Positions 11,939-44,093 of a DNA stretch of 64,000 nt are shown piece after piece (position 1 is the stretch's first letter; each line of letters starts with the position of its first letter). The notes beneath the pieces are model-generated. The model did not search any database and was not told the DNA's origin. It saw nothing but the letters and a program-made list of their open reading frames with translations. Source of the DNA: Atractiella rhizophila (Eukaryota); contig MU271403.1 in the NCBI GenBank assembly GCA_021432655.1, forward strand, positions 1 through 64,000. The letters run 5' to 3'. The position numbers were made by a program, and so were the translations under genes.

Positions 11939-13997
11939 ATGCTTGCTGCAATGCCTTTGATACCTGTTGCTCACCCTGGCCATCGTTACAGAACATCGCA
12001 TCGCGTGCGACCCCATCCTGGGGTTGACCATCAGTTCTTACAATTCCCTCATCACGCCGCCCTCGCCACTTTGGAAGATGTGCCTATCGAGAAACCTGCG
12101 GTTCTTAACATCTCACCGCCCCTCTCAGCTTCAATATCTTCCTCTGCCAGGCCTTCCAAGATCTTCCCTCCAGGTATGACACCAACATGCTCGAACTGCC
12201 AGACTCAGGTCAGTTTGCTGCCTTTGTGCTCTACCATAGTCGCTAACCTTTGTCCTCCCAAGACTACTCCGTTATGGCGTCGATCTCCCATTACGTCGGA
12301 GATCTTATGCAACGCCTGCGCCTTGTTTCTGAAGATGAAAGGCCGTAATCGGCCTATCTCTCTCAAAACCGATGTGATTAAGCCGAGGAACAGGAGTAAA
12401 GGTGAGAAATCGAGGAAGGGAGTTGGGGAATCTCCGAATCGAAGAAGGTCGAAACCAACCGCATCTGCACCAAGAAGTAGGGAAGCGAGCACTACAAGGG
12501 GCGAGAAAAGGGGTGGAGAGAGCAGTTTGATACTAGAAGAAGAGGAATTGCGGAAAGCCCGTCGTATTGAGAGGTCATCGATGAAGTCACAACTGTAAGC
12601 TCCTCGACATTGAGGGGCATATTAGTAATGTTGCAAGCAGGGAGGTACCAACGTCTGGGCGAAGAGTCAGTGGGGATTGGCCAGCCGGCAGCCTTTTAAA
12701 GTCGGGACGCTTTACCTCTCTTGACGATTTCTCTTCCAGACCGTCCACCGCTGGGACAGGATCAGTATCTAACGATCCTGCATCGTCCCTCTTCGACCGA
12801 CGATTCCATTCCCATAACTCCTCCCTGGACAACTCTCCGGCGCTCCGCTCCAACGTTTCTGTAGACGAATACGGCCGTATCATTCTTCCACCGCTACTGT
12901 CAACAAGGACACCATCGCTTGATACGGCTGTTCCTCAAATTCCCCGACATCAGGACACAGATGGCGACGTGGATATGGAACTGGATGAGCGTGAACGCGG
13001 ACGGCAAAGGGGTCGTCAGGTCATTTTACCTTCGATTCATGCCCTCGATGCTTCTGTGCGCACTGACTTCTCCATTCCCCCGACGACACGATCAGGCTTC
13101 AGCACCAATCCTTCACATTACACCGTCAGGTCCGCAAATTCATTGCCGCCTCGACGAGGCTTCGTCATGTCAAGCTCTAGGGATTCGCCAGTCTCAGCCT
13201 CATTTACATTTAGTCAACCACCTTCTGTTCACTTTCCGTCCGAGCAGTCTTCGCCTGTCAACCATCACTCCCCAGAAGAGTCAACGTCACACCATCAGTC
13301 GCCAGATGAATCAGCATCATATCTTCATTCACCAGAAGAGGCCTCGTCTCCATCGTCATCTGGCCATGGTCCGTCCCATCCCCGGACCTGGGGAGATAGC
13401 GGCAAGCTACGGCCGGTAATCGAATCCACTCGATCCAGTCAGGATGCTGATAGAGGGAGAAGTCATACCCGGAAAGGAAGATCGAAGATTGGCAGTGGAG
13501 ACCCCCAACCTGGTCAAGAGGAAATGGACCTCGATATTCGACGACTTGAGTTGAAAGAAGAGGAAGATGAAGGTATCGGACGTAGCGTTTCTTCTACCCG
13601 TCTTCCCACATCTCTCGTGATGGCCAACGTGGATGCCACTCCAATCATCCCCCCGAATCCCCTCGCCGACGATGTCAAATCTCTTCGGCTCAAAGTGCAA
13701 GAGCTGGAAATTCTAAACATGCGGCTGCAGAACACCGTCGAGCTCCTACACCAGCACGTTCTTCAGTCTCAGCAGTCACCGCGTCCCTCTCCCCCTCTCT
13801 CCGCGCCTGCACCTACGCTGGCCAGAACAACTCAAGATGAAACCAACGGCTTTATCCGAGATCTACAAAGTCACGGATTACTCCAAACCGACAAACCAGT
13901 CGATGCCACATATCTTGTCATGCTGGACCTGCTCAAGCGCAAATACAACTATAAACCTGGAGACCTCCACACCTCTAACTTAAGCTCCAACCGTTGA
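11939..13997 (+). CDS. GATA zinc-finger transcription factor, AreB/ASD4/Dal80-like, with C-terminal leucine zipper
   Basis: CSNCQTQ/TTPLWRR...[30 protein letters not shown]. An intron at ~12595-12650 joins in frame to the 12969-13997 ORF, which has heptad Leu repeats ([25 protein letters not shown]). Start codon uncertain. Confidence 0.85.
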
Positions 13998-15959: not shown

Positions 15960-18558
15960 ATGTCTGATCTTCCCTCATACTCACCAGCTGCACCCTCCGC
16001 CCAATCCCTCTCCCTGCCCCAATCCTTCTCTGTAGCCAACCGTCCTCACCAGCCATTCGTCCATCCTCCAGCAGTACTCGCCCATCTTCGACTCCTCGGC
16101 GCTTTTCACGCCCTCCGTCAATCCGTAGAAGCAAATGAGCTGCATGAGCAAAAAGAGAATCTGCCAACTATCTCTGTCTCCAGCTCGGACGGAGGTGCGA
16201 GTGGTGCAGGTCAGTTGTTTCCCCACTCTCTTGTTACACATGAGTGACAAGGATGAAGTGAAACTGCCACAAGAACTCCTCTGGTCGCTCTTCCTCCATC
16301 AAGCCGTATCTCGCTTTCAGCTCTGGTCTTCCCTCGTCCTCTCTTCCTCGTCCTCACGTTCATCTGCATCCGCTTCGGGACGGCTGGAAGAAAATCAATT
16401 GCCGCCCATCGATGTCCTGTTGGTATGGCACGCCTATCTCCTCAACCCGTGGACGTATTGGGAGGACTGTTTGACTCGCGCAAGAGCTTCAGCGGAGGCA
16501 GGAGAGGAGGAGAAGGGGTTTGAAGGGTTGAGGAATATGGGAGGGATGGAAGTGGAAACGATCGTACGTCATTCTATGCTCTGACCCCCCCTTCCCTCCT
16601 CGAACGATAGGTTAGTACTCATGCTGGAGTTGGATGATAGGCAAAATACATCGATCTCGATACGTTTCAGTACAATCCGCCCACAGCCTCAATCAAGAAC
16701 TGGACGACGCTGACCAAGACAGCATTCGAAGCTGAGGTGCGTTTACATCCCTCTTTCTTCCTCTCAAGAGATCAAAGCACAGAATAACACCACTTTAGGT
16801 TCCCTTACCGTCATCGAAGCACACGATCGATTGTCCCTCCTGTTCCATCAGCCATTCCATCCCCTACGTCTCTCCCTCGGGAACCGGTTGGGCACAGAAC
16901 TTCGCGCACTCTTGTTCCTGCGGTCTAAACATCACTAAATCGACATACGGCCTCCTCACACTGGCCCACACAGTCTCCTCCTACCTCCTCTACTACCAAT
17001 CCCGTTCGGTCTCGAAACAAACTCCAATCCCTCTCTCCGCCTGCCTCGCCGGCACCGTATTGGGTCCAGGGACTGGGGAGGAGAGAGCGGATCGGGCGGA
17101 GAGGACGAACGAACAGTGGATGCGTCCGTTCACTCTGAGATTCGCGCCCGGAGTGTCGGGAAAGGAGATTGCAGAGAAGTGCGAGTGGAAGTGGGAAGAG
17201 ATGGAGGCTTTCTTCATTAGGGGTATGCTCGGCGATGCCGCTGTGAATGTGAAGATGAAGACTCCTAAGACCGTCGTGAGGTTGTTGAGAGCTTATAAGG
17301 AGCCTTTTGGATCACTTGAACTTGTTGGAGCAGTGAGTTCCCTCGTCATCATCTCCCCCTTTCTTTTCTTATGAGGCGATGGATGATTGAAAGGTGAATC
17401 GACAATTCGAATTCGTCCGCTCTTTACACTCGATCCACTGGCTCGACCCTCGCAAGTTCGAGACTGACCAAACGACCCTCGTGCTGGCTATAGCGAGATA
17501 TCACGCGTGGATCGACCTCATGTCATCAGCATCCGTACCTGGAGGAGCACTCGTGCCCACGCTAGACATCGATTTGGTCTGGCATACCCATATGCTCGAT
17601 GCGAAGGCATATAGAGAACAGCTGTTGAATGCTTTAGGGAGGATACCGAACCACGGTCCGTCTTTCCTCCTATCCGTTCCTTAGTATACTGTGGGTTATT
17701 GAAGAGTGAGCTCTGATATTACTGGGTGGATGACAGATGATCGGATCGAAGAAAACGCGTTGTCAAATGCGTTTGAGCAGACGGCAAAGGCTTGGATGGG
17801 GAGGTTCGGCGTGCCGTATACGACTTGTGGTTGTGTCGTACGTAGCTTCTCCCCATCCATCTATTCCCTCCAAGGTATAATGAATAATTGATTATAAAAC
17901 GTGTCCGTAGCTGCCTGAGGGCGAACAAACCTTGTCTTCCAAGCTCAAGGACCGATTCAAATCCTCCAAGACTCAACCGATCCAGCCCAAAGATTCACTC
18001 ATCCACCTAGCAGCCACCACGTCTTCTCCCGCATCCCACCCTTCCGAGCACAACGGCATCCGGGTCCTCTCCCCCTCACAAGAAGCGGAGCGGAAGAAGC
18101 GCAAAACCACTATTGAGAAGGTGGTGGCCAAGGAGGAGAAGGCGGTGAATACCGGGAAGGGGAAGGGAAAAGGGGATAGGTGGATGGAGGAGAGGGAGAG
18201 GAAGAGGAAGGAAGGACATGCGAACGCTTTCTTTAGGCAGGAGAAGGGCACCACAGAATTTTGGGGAGTTAATACCCCAAGGCTTGTCGGTTTCGCTTAT
18301 GGATTGGGATTGGCGGGTGCGTCCTTACCCTTTCCCCTCTTCTCTATGAGGCTAATGGGTACATGCGAGCAGGTTGTGGGAACATTGTTGATGATGCAGA
18401 TGGAATAGAAAGCGCTGGGAGTCAGTTGGCACCTCTAACTGGTGGGAATGCCCTCAACAGTGCGTATCCAGCTCTTCCTGCTGAGAAACTGACGATCTGG
18501 TATTGCAGTCGGTGGTACCGGAGCTGGTTGTGCTGCCGGCGGTGGTGGCGGAGGCTGA
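15960..18558 (+). CDS. DUF1399 / glycine-rich-domain-containing protein (multi-exon)
   Basis: Two repeats of the DUF1399-type motif (LPPIDVLLVWHAYLLNP and AIARYHAWIDLM...LVPTLDIDLVWHTHML), plus TAKAWMGRFGVPYTTCGC and a C-terminal GAGCAAGGGGGG tail. Confidence 0.8.
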
Positions 18559-19148
18559 TTATGATGCAATGCTCTTCAATTTCTGCCCAATGTTAGGCTA
18601 AAGGATTCAGTTATGTGGATTACTGGACATTGTTGACTCTGTGAACTGTTGTTGCTCAAACTGTTCAAGTTGTGTCCTGATTGTGTATCATTAATATCTG
18701 AAAGGAAAAAGTTGTTGTAATCTTATGTAATCTTATGTTTCGAGTTGAGATGCAGATTTTTCAGTGAGGCCGACACTCTGAAGAGGGCACCAAGGAAGCG
18801 TAGTCAGCAGTGGAGCGTTAATGAGTCGACGCCAGGAGACAGTCCCACTCAATACATTCAATCTTGCATCACTGAGTTTTGAAAGTGCACCGCGCTGCAG
18901 TTTAGAAGGAGAATCCCCGAACAAGTTGCTGAGGACAGACATTCTAAGCAGAGATGATGCTGTGGTTCGAGTGTCCGCCAGTGACAATTCCCGAGACGCG
19001 GTATCAAGACGGTGGCTTTGAGTTTCCCTTCATAGTCTCATTCTCATGTAGTATGGTTCACCAGCCACGGACACTTCTGCCGTCCTCCAGCTTCCTTCTA
19101 ATTCAGAATTGATTTTACATATTGTTCCATACCAAGACCGGACTCAGG

Positions 19149-20785: not shown

Positions 20786-21500
20786 GTTGTTATTTCTGCA
20801 AAGAATCAACATTAACTTCAAAGCTGCATGTCTGCGCTGCTGAACGCCTGATCTCTGACAAAAGCCAAAAGAGCATACCAGTGAGAGTACACAGTAGGCA
20901 AGAATATGTAGTCCGCCTCACTTGAGGTAAATTTTGCGGTCTGACTTGGCTAACATTTCGTGTGTGCAGACTCAGCAGCACAGCTGGCTGTGATGAAAAG
21001 AAGCTCAACACTCACCTCGAAAAGTGAATGAAGTGATAGAAGTTCTTCAAATGACCGTTTACCTGTTGCTGATTCAGTTTTAACGTTTAACACATTAACA
21101 GTTGACATCGGATCCGAAAATGTTTATGAATTTGAATGTGTCGCTTTATGAAGCGAATTATTATACTGATATCTATTCACGCTACTTTTATGACCACGAA
21201 ATACGCGCCTAGGACCTTTACAGCCAAAATAGAATATTGCATTGCCTTTAACGTGATTGTTTATCACATTCGTTAGGTAATCAAGAGATAGAAAGAACAA
21301 GATGCACAGAGGGCTCGACATCGAATAGGGAGGGAGAAAGGACGAGATAAGGGTGATTTACATCAGAAAGAAAGAGAAAGTCGAATACTTCAACTGATCA
21401 TGTTCGATGGATAAGGTATGTCACAGAGAAACGACAGCCGAGAAGTAAAACCGCTGTAGTAAGCAGATTTGCGTCAAAGTTATCCTGGAGCGAACTAGGA

Positions 21501-23611
21501 CTATTGTGGATTGGATAAACTGCGAGATTGAGGCGTGGATCGAGGCGCAAGGTGGATTCGATTTCCAGACGAGTACCAACGTACCACATCGATGAGAGCA
21601 TCTTCGTTGGCGTGCGTATCCATTATTGAACTGGGGAACGGCTCGTCTGCCAGTCCGTTGAGTACCCCAAGGACTTTCACTGAGGTTGGCCCTGTTTCAT
21701 CCACCAGAAGCACCCGTCCGAGCTGCAATACACGGTCAGCGAGGGAGAAACAGCAAAACAGCAAGGAGTAACTGACAGGATAGAAAAAGCCAGTGATGAA
21801 CCAAGCATAAACATAACACCCTCTTGCAACATCGGCCGGGATCAGAAGAGGAAAATATGGCCTGAAAGCGATCATCTCCATTAGTATCGACGCGATTTCC
21901 CACATCCTAGGTGGGTTGCTTAGATCAAGGTTGGGAAAGTAGTTCTGAAGGCGGTAGTGGAGGAAGTGAGATAGCTTGTGGCGAACAGCGTTCCCGTACA
22001 CAACATATTGAACCTCCTTAACCTTAGCCCTGAGAGTCTTCTTGAATCTCACATCGTCGATCTTGGAACAGTATTTTCTGAACAAATCCACGGTAACGTC
22101 GCTCCTCCACACCGCTTGATCCTTTCCCGCAAGTACAAGGATCGCAGATCCTAAGAGTTCGAGGTCAGCACCAGTAGTGTCCTCCGCTGCGAGATAGGTA
22201 TCCATCAGGCCAATGGCTCTGTGAATCCTCCCAAATAGAACGCCATGAGGAAGGGGAGGCATATCAGCGCTAGTGCGAACAATGAAGTCGAGGAGGTCAG
22301 TTCTTTGGTCCAACGAATCGTAGATGAGCCTTTTTTCGTCTACAGCCTTTTGAGGGCCAACAGGCTGCTGGGGAGGAGCAGGAGCGGCAGGAAGCAGGGC
22401 TGGAGCAATTCGCTGTGAGGCACTAGAACCTGGTCGCTGGATCGCGCCTGGTTGAGGCTGGGGAATTGTAGCTTGAGGCGCAGTGCGCAAGACCCCAGGC
22501 GGAGCTTTTTGGAGGTAGGCATCGCGTTGGCTTTGATGTGTGAGGTGACCACGTTGAGGTTGCAGTTGATACGATGAAAGTTGCGGTTGACACGATTGAG
22601 GTTGGAATTGGGGTCGGAGTTGAGGTTGCGGTTGAGGTTGCGGTTGAGGTTGCGGTTGAGGTTGCGGTTGAGGTTGCGGTTGAGGTTGCGGTTGAGATTG
22701 TAGCTGACAGTGTTGTTGAATTTGCGGACGAGGTTGCAGATGAGGTTGCGGGTGACCTTGCAGCTGGGGTCGCGGGTAAGGTTGGGGTTGATGAACTCTA
22801 GTAGGCACCGCCAGCGTTTTTGACTGTGTAGGCGTCGCGAGCGGAGGAGGGATCTGGTGATACAGAGGACCAGTCACGGGCGGATAGAAGGTGGTCGTAG
22901 GTCGAGGTCGACGCGGCAAAGGACGTGGCCGTGGTCGAGGTCGATGAGCCAAGGGACCTGGTCGTGGTCGAGGTAGACGAGTGGTGGAGGTGGCCGGCGG
23001 CGTCGGCGGGGTGGGAGGTTGTTGGAGTGGACCCGCTTGAGTTGGAGGAGTGAGAGGCGCGTTAGGAGGGGCCCACAATGGAGAGGAGGCATTTGGACAG
23101 AATGCCACAGAAGGATAGAAGGTGTGGTATTGAGGAGGAACGCTGCCGATAAAGGGCTGCGAGGGATTCACTGGTTGAAGGAAATTTAGACCTGACAAAC
23201 AAGGAGTCAATCTATGCTCAGCGGGCCAGTTGCGGCAAAGGGAAAATATGGAGAAGAAATGGGCGGTTGTGTCCATGGGCCAGTTTATTGTGATAAACAA
23301 AATAGAAGGGATAGCGTACCTCTCGACATCTGGTACATGGCAAAAGCAGGATTCATACTAGCGCGAGCACGCATGTCGGCACTATCACCAGGCAACTTGC
23401 CAACGCTCAACAGAGAGGAGGAGGGAGTTTGGTTTGGAAGCGGCTCAGAGAGACCTACAGTTGCCACAAGCGTTAATACCTCTTCCCAACGCCTGAATAA
23501 TAACTTAAACTCACCATGAGACATTGCAACGCTTCCCAGGCTCGGATTGACAAGAGCAACTGAGGATAGCAAATGTGGACCGAAGGAATGCTCTGCCTCT
23601 CGAGTTGCCAT
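21501..23611 (-). CDS. Pro/Gln-rich protein with divergent A/B-type cyclin fold, copy 1 (apparently complete)
   Basis: Spliced model starts MATREAEHSF (ATG 23611) with GT-AG introns. The C-terminal half matches the cyclin-box pattern: RTDLLDFI..HRAIGLMDTYL..LELLGSAILVLAGK..HFL..IASILMEM..PADVA. Confidence 0.65.
22619..22695. repeat. 12-bp coding minisatellite (gttgaggttgcg)n encoding (QP)n; second copy at 24687-24763
   Basis: About six perfect units, visible in both duplicated copies. Confidence 0.95.
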
Positions 23612-23811
23612 CTTTGGGCTTTGAAGAGAAGTGACGGTCTCAGAAATGGCGTAAAGGTGGAGCGAGATCGAACGATATTGTAGTGAGGGTTTATATACTG
23701 AATGTATGGGGAAAGCGGGAGAGCTAAACAGCGGGAAGCGGGAAGGCCCAAACGTATCTGGTCCCGTCAGGAGGTGTCAGCAACAGAATAATTTTCAAGT
23801 TATACTCACTC

Positions 23812-25679
23812 TCAAGTGCTTCTGAGGTACAAGGAGTAACTGACAGGATAGAAAAAGCCAGTGATGAACCAAGCATAAACGTAACACCCTCTTGCAACAT
23901 CGGCCGGGATCAGAAGAGGAAAATATGGCCTGAAAGCGATCATCTCCATTAGTATCGACGCGATTTCCCACATCCTAGGTGGGTTGCTTAGATCAAGGTT
24001 GGGAAAGTAGTTCTGAAGGCGGTAGTGGAGGAAGTGAGATAGCTTGTGGCGAACAGCGTTCCCGTACACAACATATTGAACCTCCTTAACCTTATCCCTG
24101 AGAGTCTTCTTGAATCTCACATCGTCGATCTTGGAACAGTATTTTCTAAACAAATCCACGGTAACGTCGCTCCTCCACACCGCCTGATCCTTTCCAGCAA
24201 GTACAAGGATCGCAGATCCTAAGAGTTCGAGGTCCGCACCAGTAGTGTCCTCCGCTGCGAGATAGGTATCCATCAGGCCAATGGCTCTGTGAATCCTCCC
24301 AAATAGAACGCCATGAGGAAGGGGAGGCATATCAGCGCTGGTGCGAACAATGAAGTCGAGGAGGTCAGTTCTTTGGTCCAACGAATCGTAGATGAGCCCT
24401 TTTTCGTCTACAGCCTTTTGAGGGCCAACAGGCTGCTGGAGAGGAGCAGGAGCGCGAGGAAGCAGGGCTGGAGCAATTCGCTGTGAGGCACTAGAACCTG
24501 GTCGCTGGATCGCGCCTGGTTGAGGCTGGGGAATTGTAGCTTGAGGCGCAGTGCGCAAGACCCCAGGCGGAGCTTTTTGGAGGTAGGCATCGCGTTGGCT
24601 TTGATGTGTGAGGTGACCACGTTGAGGTTGCAGTTGATACGATGAAAGTTGCGGTTGACACGATTGAGGTTGGAATTGGGGTCGGAGTTGAGGTTGCGGT
24701 TGAGGTTGCGGTTGAGGTTGCGGTTGAGGTTGCGGTTGAGGTTGCGGTTGAGGTTGCGGTTGAGATTGTAGCTGACAGTGTTGTTGAATTTGCGGACGAG
24801 GTTGCAGATGAGGTTGCGGGTGACCTTGCAGCTGGGGTCGCGGGTAAGGTTGGGGTTGATGAACTCTAGTAGGCACCGCCAGCGTTTTTGACTGTGTAGG
24901 CGTCGCGAGCGGAGGAGGGATCTGGTGATACAGAGGACCAGTCGCGGGCAAATAGAAGGTGGTCGTAGGCCGAGGTCGATGCGGCAAGGGACGTGGCCGT
25001 GGTCGAGGTCGATGAGCCAAGGGACCTGGTCGTGGTCGAGGTAGACGAGTGGTGGAGGTGGCCGGCGGCGTCGGCGGGGTGGGAGGTTGTTGGAGTGGAC
25101 CCGCTTGAGTTGGAGGAGTGAGAGGCGCGTTAGGAGGGGCCCACAATGGAGAGGAGGCATTTGGACAGAATGCCACAGAAGGATAGAAGGTGTGGTATTG
25201 AGGAGGAACGCTGCCGGTGAAGGGCTGCGAGGGATTCACTGGTTGAAGGAAATTTAGACCTGACAAACAAGGAGTCAATCTATGCTCAGCGGGCCAGTTG
25301 CGGCAAAGGGAAAATATGGAGAAGAAATGGGCGGTTGTGTCCATGGGCCAGTTTATTGTGATAAACAAAATAGAAGGGATAGCGTACCTCTCGACATCTG
25401 GTACATGGCAAAAGCAGGATTCATACTAGCGCGAGCACGCATGTCGGCACTATCACCAGGCAACTTGCCAACGCTCAACAGAGAGGAGGAGGGAGTTTGG
25501 TTTGGAAGCGGCTCAGAGAGACCTACAGTTGTCACAAGCGTTAATACCTCTTACCAACGCCTGAATAATAACTTAAACTCACCATGAGACATTGCAACGC
25601 TTCCCAGGCTCGGATTGACAAGAGCAACTGAGGATAGCAAATGTGGACCGAAGGAATGCTGTGCCTCTCGAGTTGCCAT
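23812..25679 (-). CDS. Duplicate copy 2 of the cyclin-like gene, 3'-truncated (last exon missing)
   Basis: Near-identical to copy 1 at offset 2068. The duplication junction lies inside the intron after FFYP, so the unspliced frame ends VSYSLYLRST-stop. Confidence 0.55.
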
Positions 25680-26602
25680 CTTCGGGCTTTGAAGAGAAGT
25701 GACGGTCTCAGAAATGGCGTAAAGGTGGAGCGAGATCGAACGATATTGTAGTGAGGGTTTATATACTGAATGTATGGGGAAAGCGGGAGAGCTAAACAGC
25801 GGGAAGCGGGAAGGCCCAAACGTATCTGGTCCCGTCAGGAGGTGTCAGCAACAGAATAATTTTCAAGTTATACTCACTCTCAAGTGCTTCTGAGGTCAGA
25901 TTTCAGGTATTCCGAGTAGCCAAGCGTCCAAGACGCGTTGGAGACTTGGAGTGCCACACCATGGTCCAAGGACTTCCATGCTCTTCACCTGCACGCTGTC
26001 CCTACAAATGTTATCGTGGCCGTGACTTCGAGGCGACGGTGCAACGGTTCAGTACGCATTCGGTTGTGGGGGACATCTTCACTGATTCCAGACCAGGATG
26101 GCACGCAAAAAATGCCTTTCCTTGTCACGTGAGGGTGTGTAGTGATACGTACATTGTATTCCTGACGGCGAGTGGAATGCACGCTGGAATGCACGTGGGC
26201 TAAATGTCAGGCAACAGGTAACTCAACTGGTGATGACGAGGGAGAGACTGAGAGAAAAGCTAAAGCCAAAAGTCGTGACTAGTACGAGAAAGTGACAAGG
26301 TGATTAGAACTTCGTCTCCAGAAAGTCTTTAGTTGTGGTAGACGGTATTATCGATGGTTACTGGTCAAACGTTTCCGAATGTTCATTAGTTCCTGAACAC
26401 GGCAAAGGTTCTATTGTATGTGTTAAACACTGTGTCTCCATCAAATTCGGTTGATGGTGTCGAAAACATTTGCTCGCACTTTTACCGCATTTAGAGAAGA
26501 CCCTCATTTTCCAGGAAAAAATCCAAGAACTTCAACCGCACTTCGAAAATTTTCGAACGTAAAAGGAATTTCTCTGCTCTTCTGTTTCTTGTCGCATCCG
26601 TA

Positions 26603-27430
26603 TTGGCTGCTGTAACTCCACTCCAGTTGAAGAGGACGAAGTACTCCGCCGAGTTGCTGCCCGTGGATGTGTGTACTCTCTCACCTCTGGCTCTTTCCGG
26701 ATTGACAAAAAGGGCAGTGAATGGGGAGGACTTGAGGATCCTCGATGAGATTCAAAATAATTCCGCTGGATTTGTTCCCGAAGGGATCGTTGCTCGGGAG
26801 CTTTCCGGTTACGCTATCCAGTGAGTAAAATTCACCCTGTGTTTCTAACAATGATCAGTTGTGCAGCGTCAATGGAGATGAAAGACTTTACTCAGCAGTA
26901 CCACTCGAGACCAGAGCCGACAATTCGCTCAGGCACCTGCTAACACTTTTCACATCCGCAACATGTGGTTGTTAAGAAGGAGCAACTTGCGGAAGTTGTA
27001 TGTTTCTACCCAGTAACGTTAATATCCTTCTGATCCCATATGGTAACCCAAAGGCGTCTCAGCTGAAGAAGCAGCCATCGCTGGTGGGGTTGGTGCATTG
27101 ACTTAATCACAAAGTTCACAATCTGGCTAAAGTTCACATCCTTCCTTCGAACTGTGGCTTACTGGACGCTGTCTCCCAGATTGAGCCTGGCCAAGCACTC
27201 CTCATCGTTGGTGGGAGCCTCTGGCTTAAGTGACGCTCCAAATTGCTGTAGTGGCAGGAATGACTGCGGACTTCAGAGACAAAAGCAAAAGGCATGTCAA
27301 ACGCTCTGTTGCGGGGATCTCGGTGCGTGCGTTTGTTACAAAGGACTGTCTTACCCGGACAATGCTATTGCGTCCAATGCCTCTTGGGATCTGGTGACTA
27401 TTAACACCTGTGAACGGCAAGGTGAGCAAA
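26603..27430 (+). pseudogene. Decayed medium-chain dehydrogenase/reductase (zinc-binding ADH / quinone-reductase-like) remnant
   Basis: Fragments occur in the expected order across frames and stops: ELLPVD, GIVARELSG, HVVVKKEQLA, PKGVSAEEAAIAGGVGALT*, IEPGQALLIVGGS..LQIA. Stops and frameshifts are present. Confidence 0.4.
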
Positions 27431-28079
27431 ATAAAGCGTATGGGTAATCCTAATGGAAGGGTTCCAGGTAAAATGTTGGCGAGGGACGCGATCTCGCAAA
27501 GCCCTAACGGAAAGAAGATGAAGAGAGGTGCAATATCATCAACGTTTCTTGCGAGCCTCTTCCGTAAAAACGACAACACAGTAATAGGTCCAAAGAAATA
27601 ATAGAAATATCACACGCGATACGTCGCCGCAGGATGATGGAGTTGTGACGATAATATGCAAGCTCAATATTTAGAAAGGAGTTCATCTAAATTTCAAGTT
27701 GAGTCAAAACTCGGACAATCTGATCAAATCTTTGCAGCAACCGACCAACTTTTGCAAGGCGGCGTTCGAAACGTTCACGGAACACAGATCATTTGATTGA
27801 GACCGGAGGACAGCCACTAGCTTTGCGAAAGCGATGGTGCAATTCAGAATACCAGACCACCGTGTCTCAGAAGTCCGCAGGCCGATACCGTTGTCATTAT
27901 TGGATGGCTTGAGGAACTGAACTGCTTCGTGGAGCTCGTCAGCGTTCACAGTCTTTATTCTGTGCCTAACGGCTCCCTGTTTCATAGTTAAGCTTTTTGC
28001 GTTGTGAGTTAAGCGAGCTCACTTGAGCTTGAGCCACCAAGTCAAGAGCTGAAATCCTGGCAGCCTTCCAACCAGATGT
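27131..28079 (+). repeat. Diverged direct repeat X (partner X' at 33650-34517) flanking the retrotransposon
   Basis: Colinear similarity from cacatccttccttcgaa to cagccttccaaccagatgt, with many substitutions and indels. Confidence 0.92.
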
Positions 28080-28210
28080 ACTTTATACACAATCACATCA
28101 TAATACATTTCATTGTGCTCACTTCTGTGTGATTGGGGATCTTTTAGGCCTCAAGCCAAAATCTCATTTGGTAGCGAGAGCTCGATTACGGTCCGTGAAC
28201 ATCATACGAA

Positions 28211-31200
28211 ATGGCGACAGAAGGGAGCACAACGCCAACGGGTGTTACGTCCGGAAGAAGAGACCCGTTTGGGTCAGGAATATCAACACCCGGAACGGAG
28301 GACGTCCCACTACTCACAGCTTCCACTGTGCCATACTCCGTGTCATCCTCAGCAAAAGTAGCATCCGAAATCAACATTCCAACAGGATCTATTCAGACGA
28401 TCGTCGCGAATGAGAAGATCCCCCCACTCACTCTCCAAAATTCAACCAGGTTCTTTCGCTCCCTGAGGTCTATCCTCGACGCGAATAATGTCGGAATACT
28501 CTTGGATGGAATCGTGACGGAACCAGTCAGCCCAATGTCTGAGGAAGGGCTGACGGTGACGCAAATGCAAGAGATGATGGCGAGAGGAAGAACCCCAAAG
28601 ATGAAAACACCAACGGATGAGGAGAACACTGCCTTCATCAAAGCCCTGTCGAACTGGAGGCGTATGGCAGCGATCGCAATGATGCTGTTGAAGCAATCAG
28701 TGGGGGATACAGCTAGGGTATTCATTGAGGATCAGGCTGATCCAGTGAAGGCGGTAAAAATCCTGAAAGACAAATACGGGACGAAGGAATTCGCAGATAC
28801 CGCCCACCTTCTACGCCAATTCACCAACTACACTCATGAGTCGAGCGACCTGGGTCTTTCCGAGTGGATTGCGAAGCTGCACGAACGAAGGAGAATATTC
28901 AACGAATCGCAAGACAAGCTTACGATTAGCGACACTCTCCTCTCCTATACCCTCGTAAACGGTCTGCGAGAAGACACTAGGCGGTGGTTATCTTCGACTG
29001 GAGTAAACCAGTCCGACCTCGCGTCTGTGGTGAATAGGTTGACAGCAGAGGAGATGGCGTTGAGGAACAGGGAGGAGGATCGTTCCGGAGGAAAAGAAAT
29101 TGCGCTCATCTCACGGATTTCGTCGCAGCCACACCAAAACCCCAATACCGAAGGGAAGAGGAAAGACAACAACGAAGGGCGTTCTCAACGACCTTTGATC
29201 AACAGGATCGCTCCAAATGCCAGGTCGATCAAAAACTGGGGAAATTGGCCACATGGAACGACTGAGAGGGGACAGTTTCGGCTGGGACCTCGACAGTGTT
29301 ACCACTGTGGAAAGGATGGACACTACGGTCGAAATTGCAACCTAAACCGGAAGCAGCAGGCAGCGTCCCTTCTCACCATTTTCAAACAATTCGACATCGA
29401 GATCCCCCGAAACGATCTTCACGTTCTCATCGCCACCGTTGCAGACGAGCAGCATGCAAACCCGATACGCGCTACCGATAACGACCCCTCTACTGGGAAA
29501 CCGTACAACGAACAAGTCGGTGTGGTTTCAAACCAGGAGCAATCCGTAGGGGTATACTTAGTAGAGGCTGATGAAGAGGATGGGTTGCACACGGTTGATT
29601 TCGGGGCGTATATGACAACTCTCGAAGTGGAGCCTGCAGGGTCAGAGAAAATTCTCGATCTAGCACCAGAAGAGGACGGCTTCGTATTAATGGCGAACAC
29701 AGACGATGCCGAGCGAATTGCCGAAATGGCACGACCATTTCACCTTGACAGTGCAGCATCCCTCCACCTAACTGTTTGCCCGTGGCTCTTACACGATTTC
29801 AGGGAGCTCGATAGGCCCATTGGGATCAAGGGAGCCTGGGGATCAAGAGGTTTCGCCACTGGGATAGGAAATCTCAAGGCAGCATTTATCTTGGACGACG
29901 GGACGAGGACCGTGGGAATGATACGAAACGTGTATTATGCACCCGGACTAGGAGTCAATCTCATTTCGTCGAAGGTCTTGATGCAAGCAGGGGTAGTGTT
30001 CAAGAATGACACTGAGAAAGTCTACTTGCATGGGAGAGATGGGAAGATGTTTGGAATCGCGTCCATCGGTCGAACACTAATCACCTTGCAGGCGAGTTAC
30101 CTCCCTGCTCCACTTCCTCCGAGCGAAAACCCTCACACGGCTTTCGTCGCAGTGCCTCTACGTACTTGGCATCGAAGGCTAGGCCACCCGAGCAACGAAA
30201 GGCTCCGCTTGGCCGTCAAGCATGAAATCCTGTCAAAGTCTGAAATAAAGGATAACTGCAATGCAATCCAGTTAAATCAGTGTTTAACTTGTGCAAGAGG
30301 GAAGGCGACATACACAAGGAGTAAGGGACCTGCGAGTGTAAGGGAGGAATACCCGGGGAAAACTTTGGGGTTTGACACCTGGGGACCGGCTACCATTTCC
30401 AGTATTCAAGGCTTTCGTTACGTTTTCGGCGCAGTGGACGAAGCGTCGAGGTACATGATTGTAGGTGGGATGAAGTTAAAGTCAGAGGCACCACAAATGT
30501 TGGAAGGAATACGGGCCGCGATAAAAAGGGATCTCGAGGTCGATCTTAGAAGGATACGGCATGACCAAGCGACGGAATTCATGTCGCATACCGTGAGGGA
30601 GTGGTGCAATAAAAATAACATTGCATCAATGAAGACAATGGCATACGCACACGACCAAGGCGGCCTATGGGAAAGGCAATGGTACACTCTCTTCAATATT
30701 GTCCGTTGTCTTCTACTTGAGTCAGGATTACCGCTATATCTATGGTACGAGGCACTCAAGGTTGCGGTGTACATGAAGAACATTATGCCTACGAAGGGGA
30801 ACAAAGGAAATCAGTCTCCTTACGAAGCGTTCCACAAAAAGAAACCAGATATTACTCACATCAGGGTATTCGGTTGCTTAGCGGCAGTGACGATCATGCC
30901 TGAACAGCGCGACTCGAAATTACTCCCCCGTGCAAAGTTGATGTATTTTGTTGGGTACGTTGCGGATGGTTACGGCTGGAGGTTCTGGGATCCAACGAGG
31001 CGGAGGATCGTGGAAGGAAAATCAGCAAGGTTCTTTGAGGATCGTTTCTACACAGGAAGACATGAGCAAGAGACAGAGGTGATACGGAATTTGGGACCAG
31101 ATGACTTTCTACCCATGCTGCTACCTCGGGAACCGACGAAGGATGCTGAAGGAGGGCCTATCGAGGGGGAGTTTGCGGGAGTAAAGGTGGACCGATCTAA

Positions 31201-33340
31201 AGAGCTCCGAGTGGATGTTGGTCTAGGAGATGGCGACGGTAACCCTTCATCACCACTTCATCCTCCGTCCCCGACGCTGCAACGACGGCGTGTAACAAAT
31301 AATGCACCAGGGGAGGATGGAGACACACCTAGAATGACGCCCGCCATCCTGTTACCACCTGAAGATGACCGTTCGTTCGTACAGGACAAGGTGTCTCAGA
31401 TCGAGGAAACGATACGGAAAGCCAGGGAGGAGGAAAATGCACACGCGCAGTTCTCACCCTACAGAGAAAGACGGTGGGGAAGAGGAGTAAGGAACATAGG
31501 GAAACCGGGATGGGACTACAAGAAATTACATGAGCGAGGATTATACTTCACTCAAATCTATGGGGAAGATGACATCAACGGACCTGTAGTAGAACTAGCT
31601 GCAGAGGTCAAACGGAATCCGAAGGCTTTCAAGTTGACTACTAGCCAAGATGAAGGAGACAACGATGAGCAAGTCTTCTGGACAGGAAGTTTGGACGAAC
31701 CGTCGTTCAAACAAGCGATAGCGGGACCGGATCGCGATCGGTGGATTGCGGCCATGGTGGCAGAGTTGGCTGCACTGGAAGCAATGGGAACTTGGAAAGG
31801 CGGACTGAGGAACTTGCCACCGGGAAGAAAAGCGTTGGGGGTGAAATGGGTGTTGTTGATAAAACGGGACCCAGCGGGGGAGGTCGTCAAGTATAAGGCC
31901 AGGCTGGTAGTGCGAGGCGATCAGCAGACTGAGGGAGTCGATTACAAAGAGACCTGGGCACCCACAGTAAGCATGGCCTCCGTTCGCGCAGTGCTCTCTA
32001 TTTCAGCACAGGAAGGATGGGTACGGCGCCAATTCGATGTTAGCAATGCCTTCCTCAACGGCGACATTGAAGAGGAAGTCTTCGTGAAGCAACCACCTGG
32101 ATTTGTGGACGAAGAGCGCCGAGACGAAGTGTACGAGTTGGGAAAAGCTCTGTATGGGTTGTGCCAGGCGGGACGTCAATGGTGGAAGAAGATGAAGGGC
32201 GTGCTTACGGATTTGGGATTCACACAAACTTCAGCAGATGCCGGCGTATACATCATGCGCAGACAGGACGACGTTATCATTATCTGTCTTCATGTTGACG
32301 ACGGGCTGGTCGTGGGCAGCTCTGGATCACTCATTGAGGATGTATTCCGACGATTGGGGGAATTCTTCAAACTGCAAGCAGGACCGGCGTCTGTTTTCCT
32401 TGGCATACAAATCGAAGCAGAGGACGGGGGAAAGCGTGTGAAGATACATCAGAAGGGGTACGCGACCAAGATTGTCCGTAAATATCTCGGCGATTCCGTC
32501 TCATCAGTACAGATGCCCTGCGACGCTGGTAAACGACTGTCCCCGGATCTATCACCTACGTCGTCAGTCGAACAAGAGCGGATGAGGAGTGTACCTTACA
32601 GAGAGGCGGTCGGTGCACTTATATACCTCTCAGCATGCACCCGTCCAGACATTGCGTATGCAGTATCAGAGGTGGCCAGGTACTGCGACAACCCGGGAAT
32701 GGGTCACTGGCAAGCAGTCAAACGAGTCTACCGCTATATCGCCGGCACATTAGATTTCGGGCTAGTTTATGACGGCTACACGTACACTCACCCATCACTT
32801 GATGCCTTCGTCGACGCGGATCATGCTGCTGATCCAGTCACTCGACGTTCTGTTTCTGGCGTACTCTTTCGCAATGCGGGAGCGGCCATTTCGTGGGTCT
32901 CGAAACGTCAAGTCGCGGTTGCAGTCTCATCAACGGAAGCTGAATATGTGGCAATGTCAGTGGCAACCCGAGAGGCAGTGTGGCTCAGAAGGTTGTGGAC
33001 GGACCTTGGGTACTCCCCATTGAAACCCACACTTATACGAGGGGACAACCAAGGAGCAATTCGACTGGCTTCGCACCCAGTAGCGCACAGCCGTACGAAA
33101 CATATTGCGGTCCACTACCACTTCACACGGGAGCGGGTAGAAGATGGCACCGTAATCCTAGAATGGATCCCCACGAGGCATCAAGTTGCAGATGTGCTCA
33201 CGAAGGGTTTGGCGGCGACGATCCATTGGAGGTTCTGCGCGTTGATGGGCCTCGTCGGAAATGAGGTATACGGTACGGATACGTCGAGGAATGCGCTGGA
33301 GAGGGGAGGGGTGATCGGTGAGGATGGAGCGGTGAAGTGA
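28211..33340 (+). CDS. Copia Gag-Pol polyprotein, uninterrupted 1709 aa
   Basis: Gag knuckle CYHCGKDGHYGRNC, protease LDSAASLHL, pre-integrase WHRRLGHP..CLTC, integrase DTWGP..D..E, RT KARLVVRG / FDVSNAFLNG / HVDD, and RNase H DADHA / EAEY / DN / KHI / ADVLTK. Domain order is PR-IN-RT-RH. Confidence 0.98.
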   Translation: MATEGSTTPTGVTSGRRDPFGSGISTPGTEDVPLLTASTVPYSVSSSAKVASEINIPTGSIQTIVANEKIPPLTLQNSTRFFRSLRSILDANNVGILLDGIVTEPVSPMSEEGLTVTQMQEMMARGRTPKMKTPTDEENTAFIKALSNWRRMAAIAMMLLKQSVGDTARVFIEDQADPVKAVKILKDKYGTKEFADTAHLLRQFTNYTHESSDLGLSEWIAKLHERRRIFNESQDKLTISDTLLSYTLVNGLREDTRRWLSSTGVNQSDLASVVNRLTAEEMALRNREEDRSGGKEIALISRISSQPHQNPNTEGKRKDNNEGRSQRPLINRIAPNARSIKNWGNWPHGTTERGQFRLGPRQCYHCGKDGHYGRNCNLNRKQQAASLLTIFKQFDIEIPRNDLHVLIATVADEQHANPIRATDNDPSTGKPYNEQVGVVSNQEQSVGVYLVEADEEDGLHTVDFGAYMTTLEVEPAGSEKILDLAPEEDGFVLMANTDDAERIAEMARPFHLDSAASLHLTVCPWLLHDFRELDRPIGIKGAWGSRGFATGIGNLKAAFILDDGTRTVGMIRNVYYAPGLGVNLISSKVLMQAGVVFKNDTEKVYLHGRDGKMFGIASIGRTLITLQASYLPAPLPPSENPHTAFVAVPLRTWHRRLGHPSNERLRLAVKHEILSKSEIKDNCNAIQLNQCLTCARGKATYTRSKGPASVREEYPGKTLGFDTWGPATISSIQGFRYVFGAVDEASRYMIVGGMKLKSEAPQMLEGIRAAIKRDLEVDLRRIRHDQATEFMSHTVREWCNKNNIASMKTMAYAHDQGGLWERQWYTLFNIVRCLLLESGLPLYLWYEALKVAVYMKNIMPTKGNKGNQSPYEAFHKKKPDITHIRVFGCLAAVTIMPEQRDSKLLPRAKLMYFVGYVADGYGWRFWDPTRRRIVEGKSARFFEDRFYTGRHEQETEVIRNLGPDDFLPMLLPREPTKDAEGGPIEGEFAGVKVDRSKELRVDVGLGDGDGNPSSPLHPPSPTLQRRRVTNNAPGEDGDTPRMTPAILLPPEDDRSFVQDKVSQIEETIRKAREEENAHAQFSPYRERRWGRGVRNIGKPGWDYKKLHERGLYFTQIYGEDDINGPVVELAAEVKRNPKAFKLTTSQDEGDNDEQVFWTGSLDEPSFKQAIAGPDRDRWIAAMVAELAALEAMGTWKGGLRNLPPGRKALGVKWVLLIKRDPAGEVVKYKARLVVRGDQQTEGVDYKETWAPTVSMASVRAVLSISAQEGWVRRQFDVSNAFLNGDIEEEVFVKQPPGFVDEERRDEVYELGKALYGLCQAGRQWWKKMKGVLTDLGFTQTSADAGVYIMRRQDDVIIICLHVDDGLVVGSSGSLIEDVFRRLGEFFKLQAGPASVFLGIQIEAEDGGKRVKIHQKGYATKIVRKYLGDSVSSVQMPCDAGKRLSPDLSPTSSVEQERMRSVPYREAVGALIYLSACTRPDIAYAVSEVARYCDNPGMGHWQAVKRVYRYIAGTLDFGLVYDGYTYTHPSLDAFVDADHAADPVTRRSVSGVLFRNAGAAISWVSKRQVAVAVSSTEAEYVAMSVATREAVWLRRLWTDLGYSPLKPTLIRGDNQGAIRLASHPVAHSRTKHIAVHYHFTRERVEDGTVILEWIPTRHQVADVLTKGLAATIHWRFCALMGLVGNEVYGTDTSRNALERGGVIGEDGAVK

Positions 33341-33347
33341 GGGGGAG

Positions 33348-33647
33348 TGTTGGAAGATGGGGTGGAGATATGAAGCGTGTTGAGGTGTTTGCCGCGCGTT
33401 CCGATGCAGATGCAAACATGTGGCACTTCACCGCAAGTCCGGTCTTATAAGGAGGCACCTGGGAATCCATATTTTCTTTCCCCAATCACATCATAATACA
33501 TTTCATTGTGCTCACTTCTGTGTGATTGGGGATCTTTTAGGTACGCTTTCGAATAGATGTACTTTATACACAATCACATCATAATACATTTCATTGTGCT
33601 CACTTCTGTGTGATTGGGGATCTTTTAGGCCTCAAGCCAAAATCTCA
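33348..33647 (+). repeat. 3' LTR containing an internal 59-bp direct repeat (33483-33541, 33571-33629)
   Basis: Follows the PPT and has TG...CA ends. TATAA at 33446-33450. Confidence 0.92.
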
Positions 33648-33649
33648 TT

Positions 33650-34517
33650 AGTACACATCCTTCCTTCGAATCAATCTGTGGTTTACTGGACGCTGTCTCC
33701 CAGATTGAGCCTGGCCAAGCACTCCTCATCGTTGGTGGGAGCCCTCTGGCTTGGGCGACACTCCAAATTGCTGTAGTGGCAGGAATGATTCAGAGACAAA
33801 AGTCATGTCAAACTCTCTGTTGCGGGAGATCTTGGTGCGTTTGTTACAATGGACTTCTCTATTGCGCCGAATGCCTCTTGGGATCTGGTGACTATTACCA
33901 CCTGTGAACGGCAAGGTGAGCAAAATAAAGCGTATGGGTAATCCTAATGGAAGGATTACAGGTAAAATATTGGCTAGGGACGCCCTAACGGAAAGAGGAT
34001 GAAGAGAGAGATGCAATGCCATCAAAGTTTCTTGCGAGCCTCTTCCGTAAACCGATAACACAGTAATAGGTCCGAAGAAATATCCCGCGCGATAGGATGA
34101 TGGAGTTGTGATGATAATATGCAGGCTCAATATTTAGAAAGGAGTTCATTTAAATTTCAAGTTGAGTCAAAACTCGGACAATCTGAGCAACCGTCCAATT
34201 TTGCAAAGCGGCGTTCGAAACGTTCACGGAAGACAGATCATTTGATCGAGACTGGAGGACAGCCATTAGCTTTGCCGAAATTCAGAATACCAGACCACCA
34301 TATCCCAGAAGTCCGCAGGCTAATACCGTTGTCATTATTGGATTGCTTGCGGAAATGAACTGCTTCGTCGAGCTCGTCAGCGTTCACAGTCTTTATTATG
34401 TGCCTAACGGTTCCCTGTTTCATAGTTAAGCTTTTTGCGTTATGAGTTAAGGAAGCACACTTGAGCTTGAGCCACCAAGTCAAGAGCTGAAATCCTAGCA
34501 GCCTTCCAACCAGATGT
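33650..34517 (+). repeat. Diverged direct repeat X' (partner X at 27131-28079)
   Basis: Begins immediately after the 3' LTR and is colinear with X. Confidence 0.92.
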
Positions 34518-36828: not shown

Positions 36829-39223
36829 ATGGAAGGTCAATCAAGGGCCCGGGCATGCAATGGTAAGTGTTCTACTCACATTGACGGTCTCTGACAGTCA
36901 AGTAGTCTGCCGTAAGCGGAAGATTGCCTGTGATGGTGATGGGAAAAACCCTTGTCAGTATCGCTCAACCTCCTCTGGACAAATCAAACTCACAAGAGCT
37001 CACATCCTACGTGCCTTGATAGGTGGACCGTGCTTCCACTTTAACAACACGAAGTCTTCCCGCCGTGATGTGGTCAAGTTCAAGTTCGTCGAGGAAAATG
37101 GGGAGGTGTTATGCACTTACGCTAAACCGTCTAAAAGACGTCGTTCTCCTCAGGCTTCACATGGAAGCGATATGATGGGATTGACGGAAATAGACGTGAA
37201 TCCTGATATTGAGGACAACAGAAAGTTCGAAGAACTAGAGCGCAGGTTTGGTTTGTCGGCTTTTCCTCTGTTCGAGCGCTGGAGCCGTTCACCTTCTCCC
37301 CACAGAAGAATTGCGGTTCCAGTTTCTTCGAGAAACATCTCGCCCATTGCTGGGTCTGGATCAGCTTCAAACCAACACCTCAGGTCCGTTCTGGCCCACT
37401 TCAAACATTCCACTTGCCCCTTCTAATCAAACGTGGCGACGTCCAGGACATCGACAAAGCTTCTGTTTACCTCCCTCCCAACTTCTCTGCCCTCTGATAG
37501 AAGAAGCTTTCAGGTCGCTATTTATTCTACCATCTATCCTGTCTCTCCCACATGTCGCATCAATCGCGGACAAGGATCCAGAATACCTCCCACAGCCGAC
37601 TGTATTGCTTCTACATGCTCTTTGCCTCATTGGAGCTTTTAACATGGGTTGGGACAAGCTGAGATTGCTCCTATCGGCCCATCCGTGCTATTCCAACACC
37701 ACATACTCTCGTCAAGAAGCGATTGCTCACAATTTCAGAGGGACTGAAGAGGATCACCATTGTCTAGGCGGCAATTGCTGTTCTGCGTCTCTTTATCGAA
37801 AATATATATATTTTTCGAACGACAGTGATTCGCCCAGCGAGGAAGAAGAAGTTCGGCAACGGATCTACATCCACCATTCCATTTTCATCGACCAGCACTT
37901 TGGCCGCACTTTAGAAGAAGCCAGCTACGGGTTAGAGAGTGTAGCTAAAGCAGGGTTGTTAGTCGCCTTGTATTGGAGTCAGTGTCAATACAATTTAGGA
38001 CGAATATGGAGGTTAAAAGTGTTGCGCGTTTGGTACGCCGTATTTCTCAACTCGGCAAGGTAACCTGGAATGACCCTGAGGTAGTACGATGCTTGGTTGG
38101 AATAAAGAGGACGCTTTAAAGAGATATGCTCCTCTGGAAGAACGACAAAGTGCAAATCTTATTTTTCATAGTGTCGAGCTGATTTATTATGATGGTAGTA
38201 AAATTACCTTTTGGTTCGCTTATGCATGGGATGCCCACATTGCGATCATACACGACGAGAGTCCTTTCATCCCTCTGGGTAAGCCTCCGTTCAGATTATG
38301 GATCGTTATCATGAGGTATATAGATGATATCACCGCCCAACTTCCTTCGTCCGAAATCTGGGATGAAGACGAGTCAGTAGGAGCCCACGACCTTTCTCGT
38401 TTGGAAGACCGGTTTACGGCTTTGGAGCCCATGCAGATCTTCCTGGAATGTGCCATTCTTCCCATTAGAGTCTTCGGGTTCTGGTGTCAGCTCAAGGTCT
38501 CAAAAATTTGGGAAGCTTCGAAGGACTTGGTAGCCGACGTAGAAAACGAGTACGTCCTTTTGTAGTGCTTCCCTGTGATATTCATCAGTCGTGATACATC
38601 CGTTTGACAGCCCCCAGTTTCTCCGACTTGCAGACGCCTGCGAGCGATACCAACGGTCGTTTCCCACCTTCCTTCTGACCGAGCTGTCGTCTAGCTGCCA
38701 ATCGACAAATTTCTCCCTTGCGGACCTCTCCACCCGAGATTTTCTCTATGCTGCGCAATGCGCGCTGTCCACAGCTACTATTCTGCTTCACGCTCCCATT
38801 CCATCAAGAAGTCATTATCCCGCCGCTCATAACGGGCTCACCTCGTCGTCCGAAAAGAGTTTACAAGCCGCGCAAACGGCTCTGTCTCTTTTGCCTCTCT
38901 TTAAGAGGACCATAGAAGAAAGAAGACACTGGACGAACATCTTCTGTCCCCTCTTTGGAATGTCGGGCAAAGTGGTTTTCCGCGCATTGATTGTCATGAA
39001 ACGTGCGCTTGCGTTTGACGAAGGAGAACAGGAGCGGATCAAGTTGAGAGCTTTAGAGGAGAATTTTCAGCTGCAAGTGCAACAGTTGAAGGAAATAACG
39101 AAGAATTGGAGGATCATTGCCCCCACAATCATTCCCATGTTGAGATTGATGGAGACGCCGGAGGCTTGTTTAGCCGAAGACTTTGACCTTTCGAGAGCTG
39201 GTATGTTCGGACATCATGGTTAA
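36829..39223 (+). CDS. Zn(II)2Cys6 fungal transcription factor (multi-exon)
   Basis: Spliced N-terminus RACNVCRKRKIACDGDGKNPCGPC...CTY, and a fungal TF middle-homology-like segment (EER...FWFAYAWDAHIA). Internal exon boundaries are uncertain. Confidence 0.8.
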
Positions 39224-43912: not shown

Positions 43913-44093
43913 ATTGCCACAATTCTTCTGCCTTCCTTACTCTCAAACAATGAAATTTATGCAATGGTCGTTTTGTTCACTAGGTGGCAAAAGTTGTTTG
44001 AGCGAACTAAAGTGAGACTAGAGGCCAGCGCGTATCATTGCATTACATTATCTCCCTGACACTCCAACCCAACCAGCACAGGAAACACGCACG

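Follow-up and report, generated by a model that had tools for sequence, protein, structure and literature searches.

A spliced and constrained G1-cyclin-like gene of Atractiella rhizophila that keeps the helix-3 lysine and lacks the helix-5 glutamate

The group I cyclins of filamentous ascomycetes have been described as a set of exactly three in each of 32 species, with duplications not found in the available part of that survey (PMC6078057), and fungi are reported to lack cyclin A (PMC3923393, in excerpt). Membership of the cyclin family has been tied to a cyclin box domain (PF00134 or PF08613), a lysine in helix 3 and a glutamate in helix 5, the latter proposed as defining for CDK-binding cyclins (PMC6971155, in excerpt). 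In cyclin Y, mutation of the lysine abolished binding, a Glu-to-Arg change severely reduced it and neither mutant activated the kinase (PMC3590450, in excerpt); in cyclin A2, Phe304 is the third residue mutated to disable CDK binding (PMC12356897, in excerpt). Here we describe a 622-amino-acid protein of the root-dwelling fungus Atractiella rhizophila in which the helix-3 lysine is present and the helix-5 glutamate is absent. The lysine-glutamate definition (PMC6971155, in excerpt) leaves this protein outside the cyclin family, from which it nevertheless descends.

The gene lies within the first 64,000 nucleotides of contig MU271403.1 (assembly GCA_021432655.1), a stretch referred to below as the window. 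The described systems that it most resembles are the Cln1/Puc1/PucA-type G1 cyclins, represented by the organism's own G1 cyclin (protein P0003, locus L006) and by Cln1 of Cryptococcus and Ustilago. The likeness extends over two cyclin boxes and 226 alignment columns and includes phenylalanine in place of tryptophan in helix 1, the helix-3 lysine, the LME and PxDVA motifs of box 2, a C-terminal WYxSGNR motif and an intron at the same codon. Unlike these cyclins, the protein has leucine for the helix-5 glutamate, a basic helix 5 and changed docking residues; the conserved loop before helix 1 is deleted, and the KKY motif is lost together with the long serine-rich tail (a median of 139 residues after KKY in 91 G1 cyclins). 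Its N-terminal extension is longer, with 372 residues ahead of helix 1, where G1 cyclins have 104 in the median and 221 at most, and the upstream coding intron of the G1 gene has no counterpart in it.

Gene structure, transcription and constraint

The gene is read from the minus strand, where a splice-signal scan gave four coding exons (23611-23515, 23454-23320, 23191-21777 and 21722-21501) whose translation runs without an internal stop to one terminal stop. Its three coding introns, of 60 nt (intron 1, 23455-23514), 128 nt (intron 2, 23192-23319) and 54 nt (intron 3, 21723-21776, in frame and stop-free), were all skipped at the predicted sites in RNA run X3, a run of spliced RNA in which four introns of the neighbouring argininosuccinate lyase gene are likewise skipped. 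Coding exon 2 (23320-23454) is given by the splice scan, the translation and X3 together. The seven motifs quoted in the earlier note all occur where it placed them, within frame 21501-23357 of the minus strand. Features beyond that description are the 54-nt intron, which stays in frame, the final exon and a truncated tandem copy at 23830-25897. A single X3 contig begins at 21223, crosses exon 4 and covers 21777-22648, so one transcript carries the cyclin part together with some of the Pro/Gln region. The X3 piece 21223-21722 also places the 3' UTR (21223-21500) at least to 21223, and at the other end a piece at 23513-23757 covers coding exon 1 and part of the 5' UTR (23515-23757, ATG at 23611). 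A 52-nt intron in the 5' UTR (23758-23809), with canonical donor, branch and acceptor, is probable; it is deduced by arithmetic, the remaining 135 letters of the X3 contig equalling 19 plus 116 loose letters. The spliced leader deduced in this way, of about 280 nt (window 25678-26012 in the coordinates of the second copy), contains two upstream ATGs. Contigs of runs X1, X3, X4 and X6, among seven runs listed, were compared with the gene, and contig depth cannot rank genes; X4 and X6, both small-share runs, each hold just two short unspliced pieces on the gene at a depth of about 2 and carry no weight here for expression or habitat. Within intron 2, 37 bp (window 23229-23265) are missing in one X1 contig, a variant absent from both window copies and from contig C729.

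Exon 3 encodes two regions of different character. Amino acids 78-360 (22344-23191) form the low-complexity stretch that the earlier note had described as a Pro/Gln-rich N-terminus; it precedes the cyclin motifs in the same exon, contains 27% proline and 18% glutamine and carries a 12-nt PQPQ repeat at about 22535-22835. A Pfam search of the N-terminus detected no F-box or other domain, and a destruction-box scan of it gave two bare RxxL matches, not above chance, and no KEN. There follow cyclin box 1 and the opening helices of box 2 (aa 361-549, 21777-22343), and exon 4 (21501-21722) encodes the end of box 2, the G1-type Trp-Tyr-x-Ser-Gly-Asn-Arg motif, a short tail and the stop.

The two regions evolve differently. 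In a small within-species sample of alleles, gathered from the tandem copy, C729 and 40 listed rows of differences in run contigs (106 more), the domain (aa 361-622) carries nine synonymous and two non-synonymous differences (pN/pS 0.07-0.09; P 7.5e-5 to 4.5e-4 against neutrality), with all 14 differences of the covering X1 contig included. In contrast, the N-terminus (aa 1-360), for which the list is incomplete, carries six synonymous and 17 non-synonymous differences and looks neutral (pN/pS 1.0-1.3). The contrast between the two gives a Fisher P of 0.003, or 0.008 with adjacent double changes merged. The cyclin domain is under purifying selection and a neutral relic is refuted; the earlier note had proposed this selection check and had named an untranscribed, neutrally evolving locus as the outcome that would count against it, an outcome now rejected by splicing in X3 and constraint on the domain.

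The tandem copy is a 2068-bp unit (21762-23828 and 23830-25897, minus strand) that runs from the promoter to intron 3; the second copy breaks inside intron 3 and so has no exon 4. The two units differ by about 1%, and contig C729 is a third version. Over 883 bp the first copy has six private alleles and C729 eight, and the second copy has none, a pattern that a consensus or mosaic would be expected to give. At three ends of X1 contigs the sequence passes from the promoter into unique flank, and both X1 and X3 carry alleles of the second copy joined to exon 4; among the listed pieces (55 more) none crosses the junction 23829/23830, where depth in the last bin would still allow for one. We therefore lean towards an assembly artefact, and the main finding is independent of whether the tandem copy is real. 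The argument that three sequence versions mean a real duplication was dropped because there are signs of three haplotypes: the gene that we take to be cyclin H occurs on three contigs (L018, L019, L020) that are 1.3% and about 5% apart, and over window 18500-19042 the X1 contigs stand at one third of full depth. The sample thus seems to hold three haplotypes, through pooled isolates or an unusual nuclear state. In the G1 cyclin gene itself (L006 1393-1877, contig C272) we noted a 480-bp in-frame tandem repeat with four mismatches, missing in the NCBI protein P0003; the repeat probably arose in assembly, as the tandem copy in the window may have done.

The earlier note had placed the gene in an accessory region, which its setting does not clearly support. 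The gene sits between argininosuccinate lyase and a copia element that lies 3.5 kb upstream, among housekeeping genes; the window also carries XRN, GARS/AIRS, Spb1, TAF1-type and KAT11 genes. The copia LTR retrotransposon (window 27131-34517) has an unbroken frame of 1713 amino acids (ORF 28199-33340) and diverged terminal repeats, about 85-92% alike, and C729 has one repeat's length at that place, as for a solo LTR. For the long frames 12585-13997, 61293-63530, 44022-44897, 37239-38063 and 38579-39223 of the window, no Pfam match at E <= 1 was found. Loci of this genome are called Cln1/Puc1, Pho85, Pcl, cyclin H or ARG4 provisionally, on the basis of Pfam hits and alignments.

Descent from a G1 cyclin

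Taken singly, the family searches are weak, but they agree. The Pfam check proposed in the earlier note gave a Cyclin_N (PF00134) match of 15.2 bits (E 0.018), present but below the cut-off of 23. In a sequence search of the PDB, 39 of 45 hits were forms of cyclin A (best E 0.026), one signal counted many times, and in the ESM Atlas all of the ten best family-bearing hits fell in the cyclin family with a top score of 0.95. Firmer evidence came from hhalign against an alignment of 120 basidiomycete G1 cyclins, which gave a score of 38.3 across 226 columns and took in exon 4; the highest of 100 shuffles reached 23.1 and the reversed sequence 20.8. Cyclin-fold descent, as proposed earlier, is supported by this result. 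These 120 sequences, from 1175 hits, had been fetched with a three-row profile that included the query, a mild bias of which a comparison within the genome (500 shuffles each) is free. In that comparison the local score against the organism's own G1 cyclin was 140 (z 8.6), and the two B cyclins scored 77 and 69 (z 2.5 and 1.6), inside the shuffle range with its maximum of 92. Cyclins of the A2/B type share the fold family, and the A/B template used in the earlier note gives way to a G1 one. In addition, over 166 columns the protein matches 31-44 residues of each of 15 G1 rows, compared with 25 and 27 in the B rows, and a narrow G1 HMM gave 7.7 bits, above all 1000 shuffles (best 3.2).

The C-terminal end and the introns point the same way. 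The motif at the end of exon 4 has a loose match in 26 of the 120 G1 cyclins and a close match in three, the organism's own included. Intron 3 lies in phase 0, four codons past an aligned glycine, as it does in the G1 gene and one B cyclin gene, and in the second B cyclin gene the intron is one codon off; the G1-gene intron was read by splice consensus, and the NCBI model implies a donor four bases further on. Taken together, these alignments and intron positions indicate that the C-terminal 250 or so amino acids descend from a fungal Cln1/Puc1-type G1 cyclin and not from A/B cyclins. Identity to that type is about 23%, against about 70% among family members themselves. The best identity is to a Rhodotorula G1 cyclin (44/166 columns), with the organism's own at 40/166, and in a tree the protein falls on the G1 side with a saturated end branch (10) that meets the outgroup; as the Rhodotorula protein is closest and the tree leaves the protein unplaced, a duplication from the organism's own G1 gene is what we infer. 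The opening 10 kb of the contig that carries the G1 cyclin showed no similarity to the window by DNA or tblastx comparison.

Two models followed the structure prediction suggested in the earlier note. An alignment-free single-sequence AlphaFold model (pLDDT 55) matched no cyclin with Foldseek or VIA-align and is too poor to be informative, and a model built on the cyclin alignment (pLDDT 70.5) returned cyclins in 45 of 45 listed Foldseek rows at TM 0.29-0.36, none with E <= 0.001, which is circular. A complex prediction with a stand-in fungal Cdk1, alignments not used, scored 0.00 and is evidence neither way.

These weaker results are what a transcribed but functionless relic, or a chance resemblance to cyclins, would draw on: the Pfam score falls under 23, the single-sequence model matched no cyclin and homologues were not found. 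Such an origin is scarcely credible and already largely refuted, because the 622-codon frame is intact after divergence to 23% identity, splicing in X3 is precise, the domain has a pN/pS of 0.07-0.09 and its alignment scores stand above all shuffles.

The usual three group I cyclins are present in the genome, two of B type (C70/C68 and C115/C125) and one G1 (C272), which makes the gene for the 622-amino-acid protein a fourth. A Cyclin_N search of the genome gave 45 matches, of which 30 plus eight regions were read, and it did not list this gene, so equally diverged relatives could be hidden. For the paralogue count raised in the earlier note, a direct search of the genome found the two window copies and one kinase stretch at E 0.175. 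Diverged cyclins that we take to be of Pcl/Pho80 type are expanded in this genome, with a dozen or more distinct loci after near-identical copies were merged (L012-L017, L021-L023, L026, L028, L030, L032, L033, L128, L131-L133 and L135).

The CDK-facing surface and its candidate partners

Relative to the G1 family the protein keeps the core helices and is otherwise heavily remodelled: 80 aligned G1 cyclins have 61 near-invariant columns, of which it retains 16, alters 40 and has lost 5 by deletion. By its invariant residues it falls outside the G1 family, from which it nonetheless descends. In helix 1 (22275-22307), column counts in 120 G1 cyclins show that the docking patch has changed from Met to Gln373, Glu to Arg383 and His to Ser385, and that Arg374, Asp379 and Phe380 are kept. 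Where an MRAIL patch has Met, Trp and Glu in helix 1 and Gln in helix 3, the protein has Gln373, Phe380, Arg383 and Glu422, so the patch is degenerate, as the earlier note had seen. For cyclin A, we assume residue roles beyond those of Lys266, Glu295 and Phe304, including the roles of the MRAIL patch residues.

The three residues that face the kinase have fared differently. The helix-3 lysine is kept as Lys434 (22122-22124; Lys in 120/120 G1 cyclins), in agreement with the earlier note, and the Glu right after it is lost. The helix-5 glutamate, also present in 120/120 G1 cyclins, is replaced by Leu464 (22032-22034), which the cyclin-alignment model would place mid helix 5. The loss reported earlier stands, and the replacement by valine does not: ungapped register scores against 104 G1 blocks were +4.7 for Leu464, -17.5 for Val468 and -25.6 for Glu470. 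With two B-cyclin blocks as reference, Lys467 (2.0) and Leu464 (1.0) tie, and the cyclin A alignment places Lys467 at the glutamate position; none of the tested registers restores the glutamate. At the position of cyclin A2 Phe304, where 120/120 G1 cyclins have tryptophan, Tyr473 (22005-22007) keeps an aromatic residue. Helix 5 as a whole has a net charge of +3, against -1 to -4 across the 120 G1 cyclins.

The genome also offers more than one candidate partner. The PSTAIRE pattern occurs in eight places, which represent two genes that we take to be Pho85-like (L037 on C26; L038/L041 on C30/C663) and three Cdk1-like genes that are 60-66% identical over the exons compared: a canonical one (L039/L042, C66/C681), L040 (C264) and L043/L044 (C443/C667). 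The C264 kinase has DLG for DFG, and its gene has a probable 9-nt mini-exon in the Gly loop. The C443/C667 kinase reads PATAIRE and has Asp-Gly-Ile in the loop to which the Lys-Glu pair binds (PMC3590450, in excerpt); at that loop position 80 of 80 metagenome Cdk1 loci have Glu, a set chosen by exact words of the canonical copy. The Cdk1 paralogues lie on contigs other than that of the 622-amino-acid gene, and no link was found between the gene and any CDK paralogue.

On these sequence grounds our best guess, to which we give a probability of about 0.4, is that the protein is a subunit of a diverged Cdk1 paralogue, with kinase binding predicted. A fourth group I cyclin would have arisen by duplication of a Cln1/Puc1-type gene and diverged to its present identity, with helices 3 and 5 still serving to bind a kinase. 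In this scheme the loop ahead of the PSTAIRE helix would be held by Lys434, and the basic helix 5 would face an acidic loop of the kinase, standing in for the glutamate. The partner would probably be one of the two more diverged Cdk1-like kinases, with as first choice the PATAIRE kinase, which has a changed loop at the site bound by the Lys-Glu pair. Substrate choice may come from the remodelled patch or from motifs of the Pro/Gln region and not from canonical docking. The basic helix 5, the kept lysine and aromatic residue and the spare diverged kinases together suggest a remodelled partnership, and the three Cdk1-like kinases tilt the reading to altered specificity. Lys434 is kept although just 16 of the 61 near-invariant columns are, which speaks for a partnership; against it, at 26% retention a lysine would survive by chance about one time in four. 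The full proposal, in which Lys434 and the basic helix 5 replace the Lys-Glu lock in a private pair with the co-diverged PATAIRE paralogue, insulated from the main kinase, is a doubtful one, and the Cdk1 paralogues could instead pair with ordinary cyclins or with the expanded Pcl-like set.

Loss of a glutamate that is proposed as defining, and was needed for activation by cyclin Y, supports a scaffold or a decoy. As a CDK-independent pseudo-cyclin, the protein would use the fold as a scaffold, as cyclin F does, with the Pro/Gln region localising it and the CDK face decayed or re-used. We regard this as a serious though tentative alternative, which sits uneasily with the retention of Lys434 and of an aromatic at 473, both among the three positions whose mutation served to disable CDK binding (PMC12356897, in excerpt); cyclin F has lost the lysine as well (PMC6971155, in excerpt), and the N-terminus shows no F-box or other Pfam domain. 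A decoy would bind the canonical Cdk1 (C66/C681) through Lys434, leave the PSTAIRE helix unset and compete as a stable brake with the G1 and B cyclins. The kept lysine and lost glutamate match the cyclin Y mutant with at most weak binding and no activation (PMC3590450, in excerpt), and the long Ser-rich G1 tail is absent; but weak binding makes a poor competitor, and a decoy would be expected to keep a parent-like interface, whereas helix 5 is strongly altered, so this reading is improbable. Still less probable, and very unlikely in our view, is an ordinary fast-evolving activator of canonical Cdk1 that serves one special stage, meiosis or sporulation for example. Crs1, an unconventional cyclin with low Cdc2-dependent activity (PMC8196990, in excerpt), gives a precedent, and the fold and lysine are kept here, but the conditions of X3 are not on record and stage specificity cannot be inferred from it.

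Comparison with known cyclin-fold systems

The earlier note had called the protein lineage-specific, and as far as we searched this is borne out. Word-indexed searches found no homologue among 903 longer candidates or 143 proteins of similar length; HMMER against 1.84 billion representatives gave two hits, both repetitive non-cyclins; and none was found in 3 stretches of viral contigs or in 90 metagenome contigs. A viral origin of the gene is ruled out by its introns. An alignment search listed 120 of 1175 hits, all ordinary G1 cyclins with no bridging sequence among them; it returned the organism's own G1 cyclin but not the 622-amino-acid protein, so absence of relatives is not proven by it. 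A literature search, mostly of open-access texts without their supplementary gene tables, turned up nothing about this gene, Atractiella cyclins or any pseudo-cyclin of fungi; the one match to "pseudo-cyclin" was a brain-ageing review.

The significance of the gene is limited by its being known from a single species, with no orthologues found. Within that limit, a fourth group I cyclin is here expressed and constrained while departing from the Lys-Glu rule by which cyclins were proposed to be defined (PMC6971155, in excerpt). It would mean that a filamentous fungus can have group I cyclins beyond the fixed three, a number shown for ascomycetes. If the private pair is real, the protein would be a natural cyclin-fold CDK activator without the defining glutamate; if it is active, the glutamate would be replaceable in nature and a fungus would be able to insulate a second Cdk1 circuit.

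Among described cyclin-fold proteins, cyclin F (FBXO1) is known to be CDK-free and, as here, has a group I fold without the helix-5 glutamate; it has lost the lysine, kept RxL docking and carries an F-box (PMC6971155 and PMC12356897, in excerpt), whereas the 622-amino-acid protein has kept the lysine, lost the patch and shows no F-box in Pfam. If no kinase is bound, the protein would parallel cyclin F in a fungus, having come to that state along a different path. In Schizosaccharomyces pombe, Crs1 is likewise a lineage-restricted unconventional fungal cyclin; compared by description, it has one cyclin box and proven Cdc2-dependent activity (PMC8196990, in excerpt), whereas our protein has two boxes and a putative activity. 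For a partnership with a diverged Cdk1 paralogue, the nearest parallel is Oikopleura dioica, in which Cdk1 and cyclin paralogues have expanded jointly with changes to PSTAIRE and several Cdk1-like kinases with altered PSTAIRE stand beside extra cyclins, as they do here (PMC6986761, in excerpt). Oikopleura is an animal and its extra cyclins are of B type, with loss of the glutamate not mentioned in the available part of that source (PMC6986761); in A. rhizophila the cyclin is of G1 descent, lacks the glutamate and has a predicted pairing.
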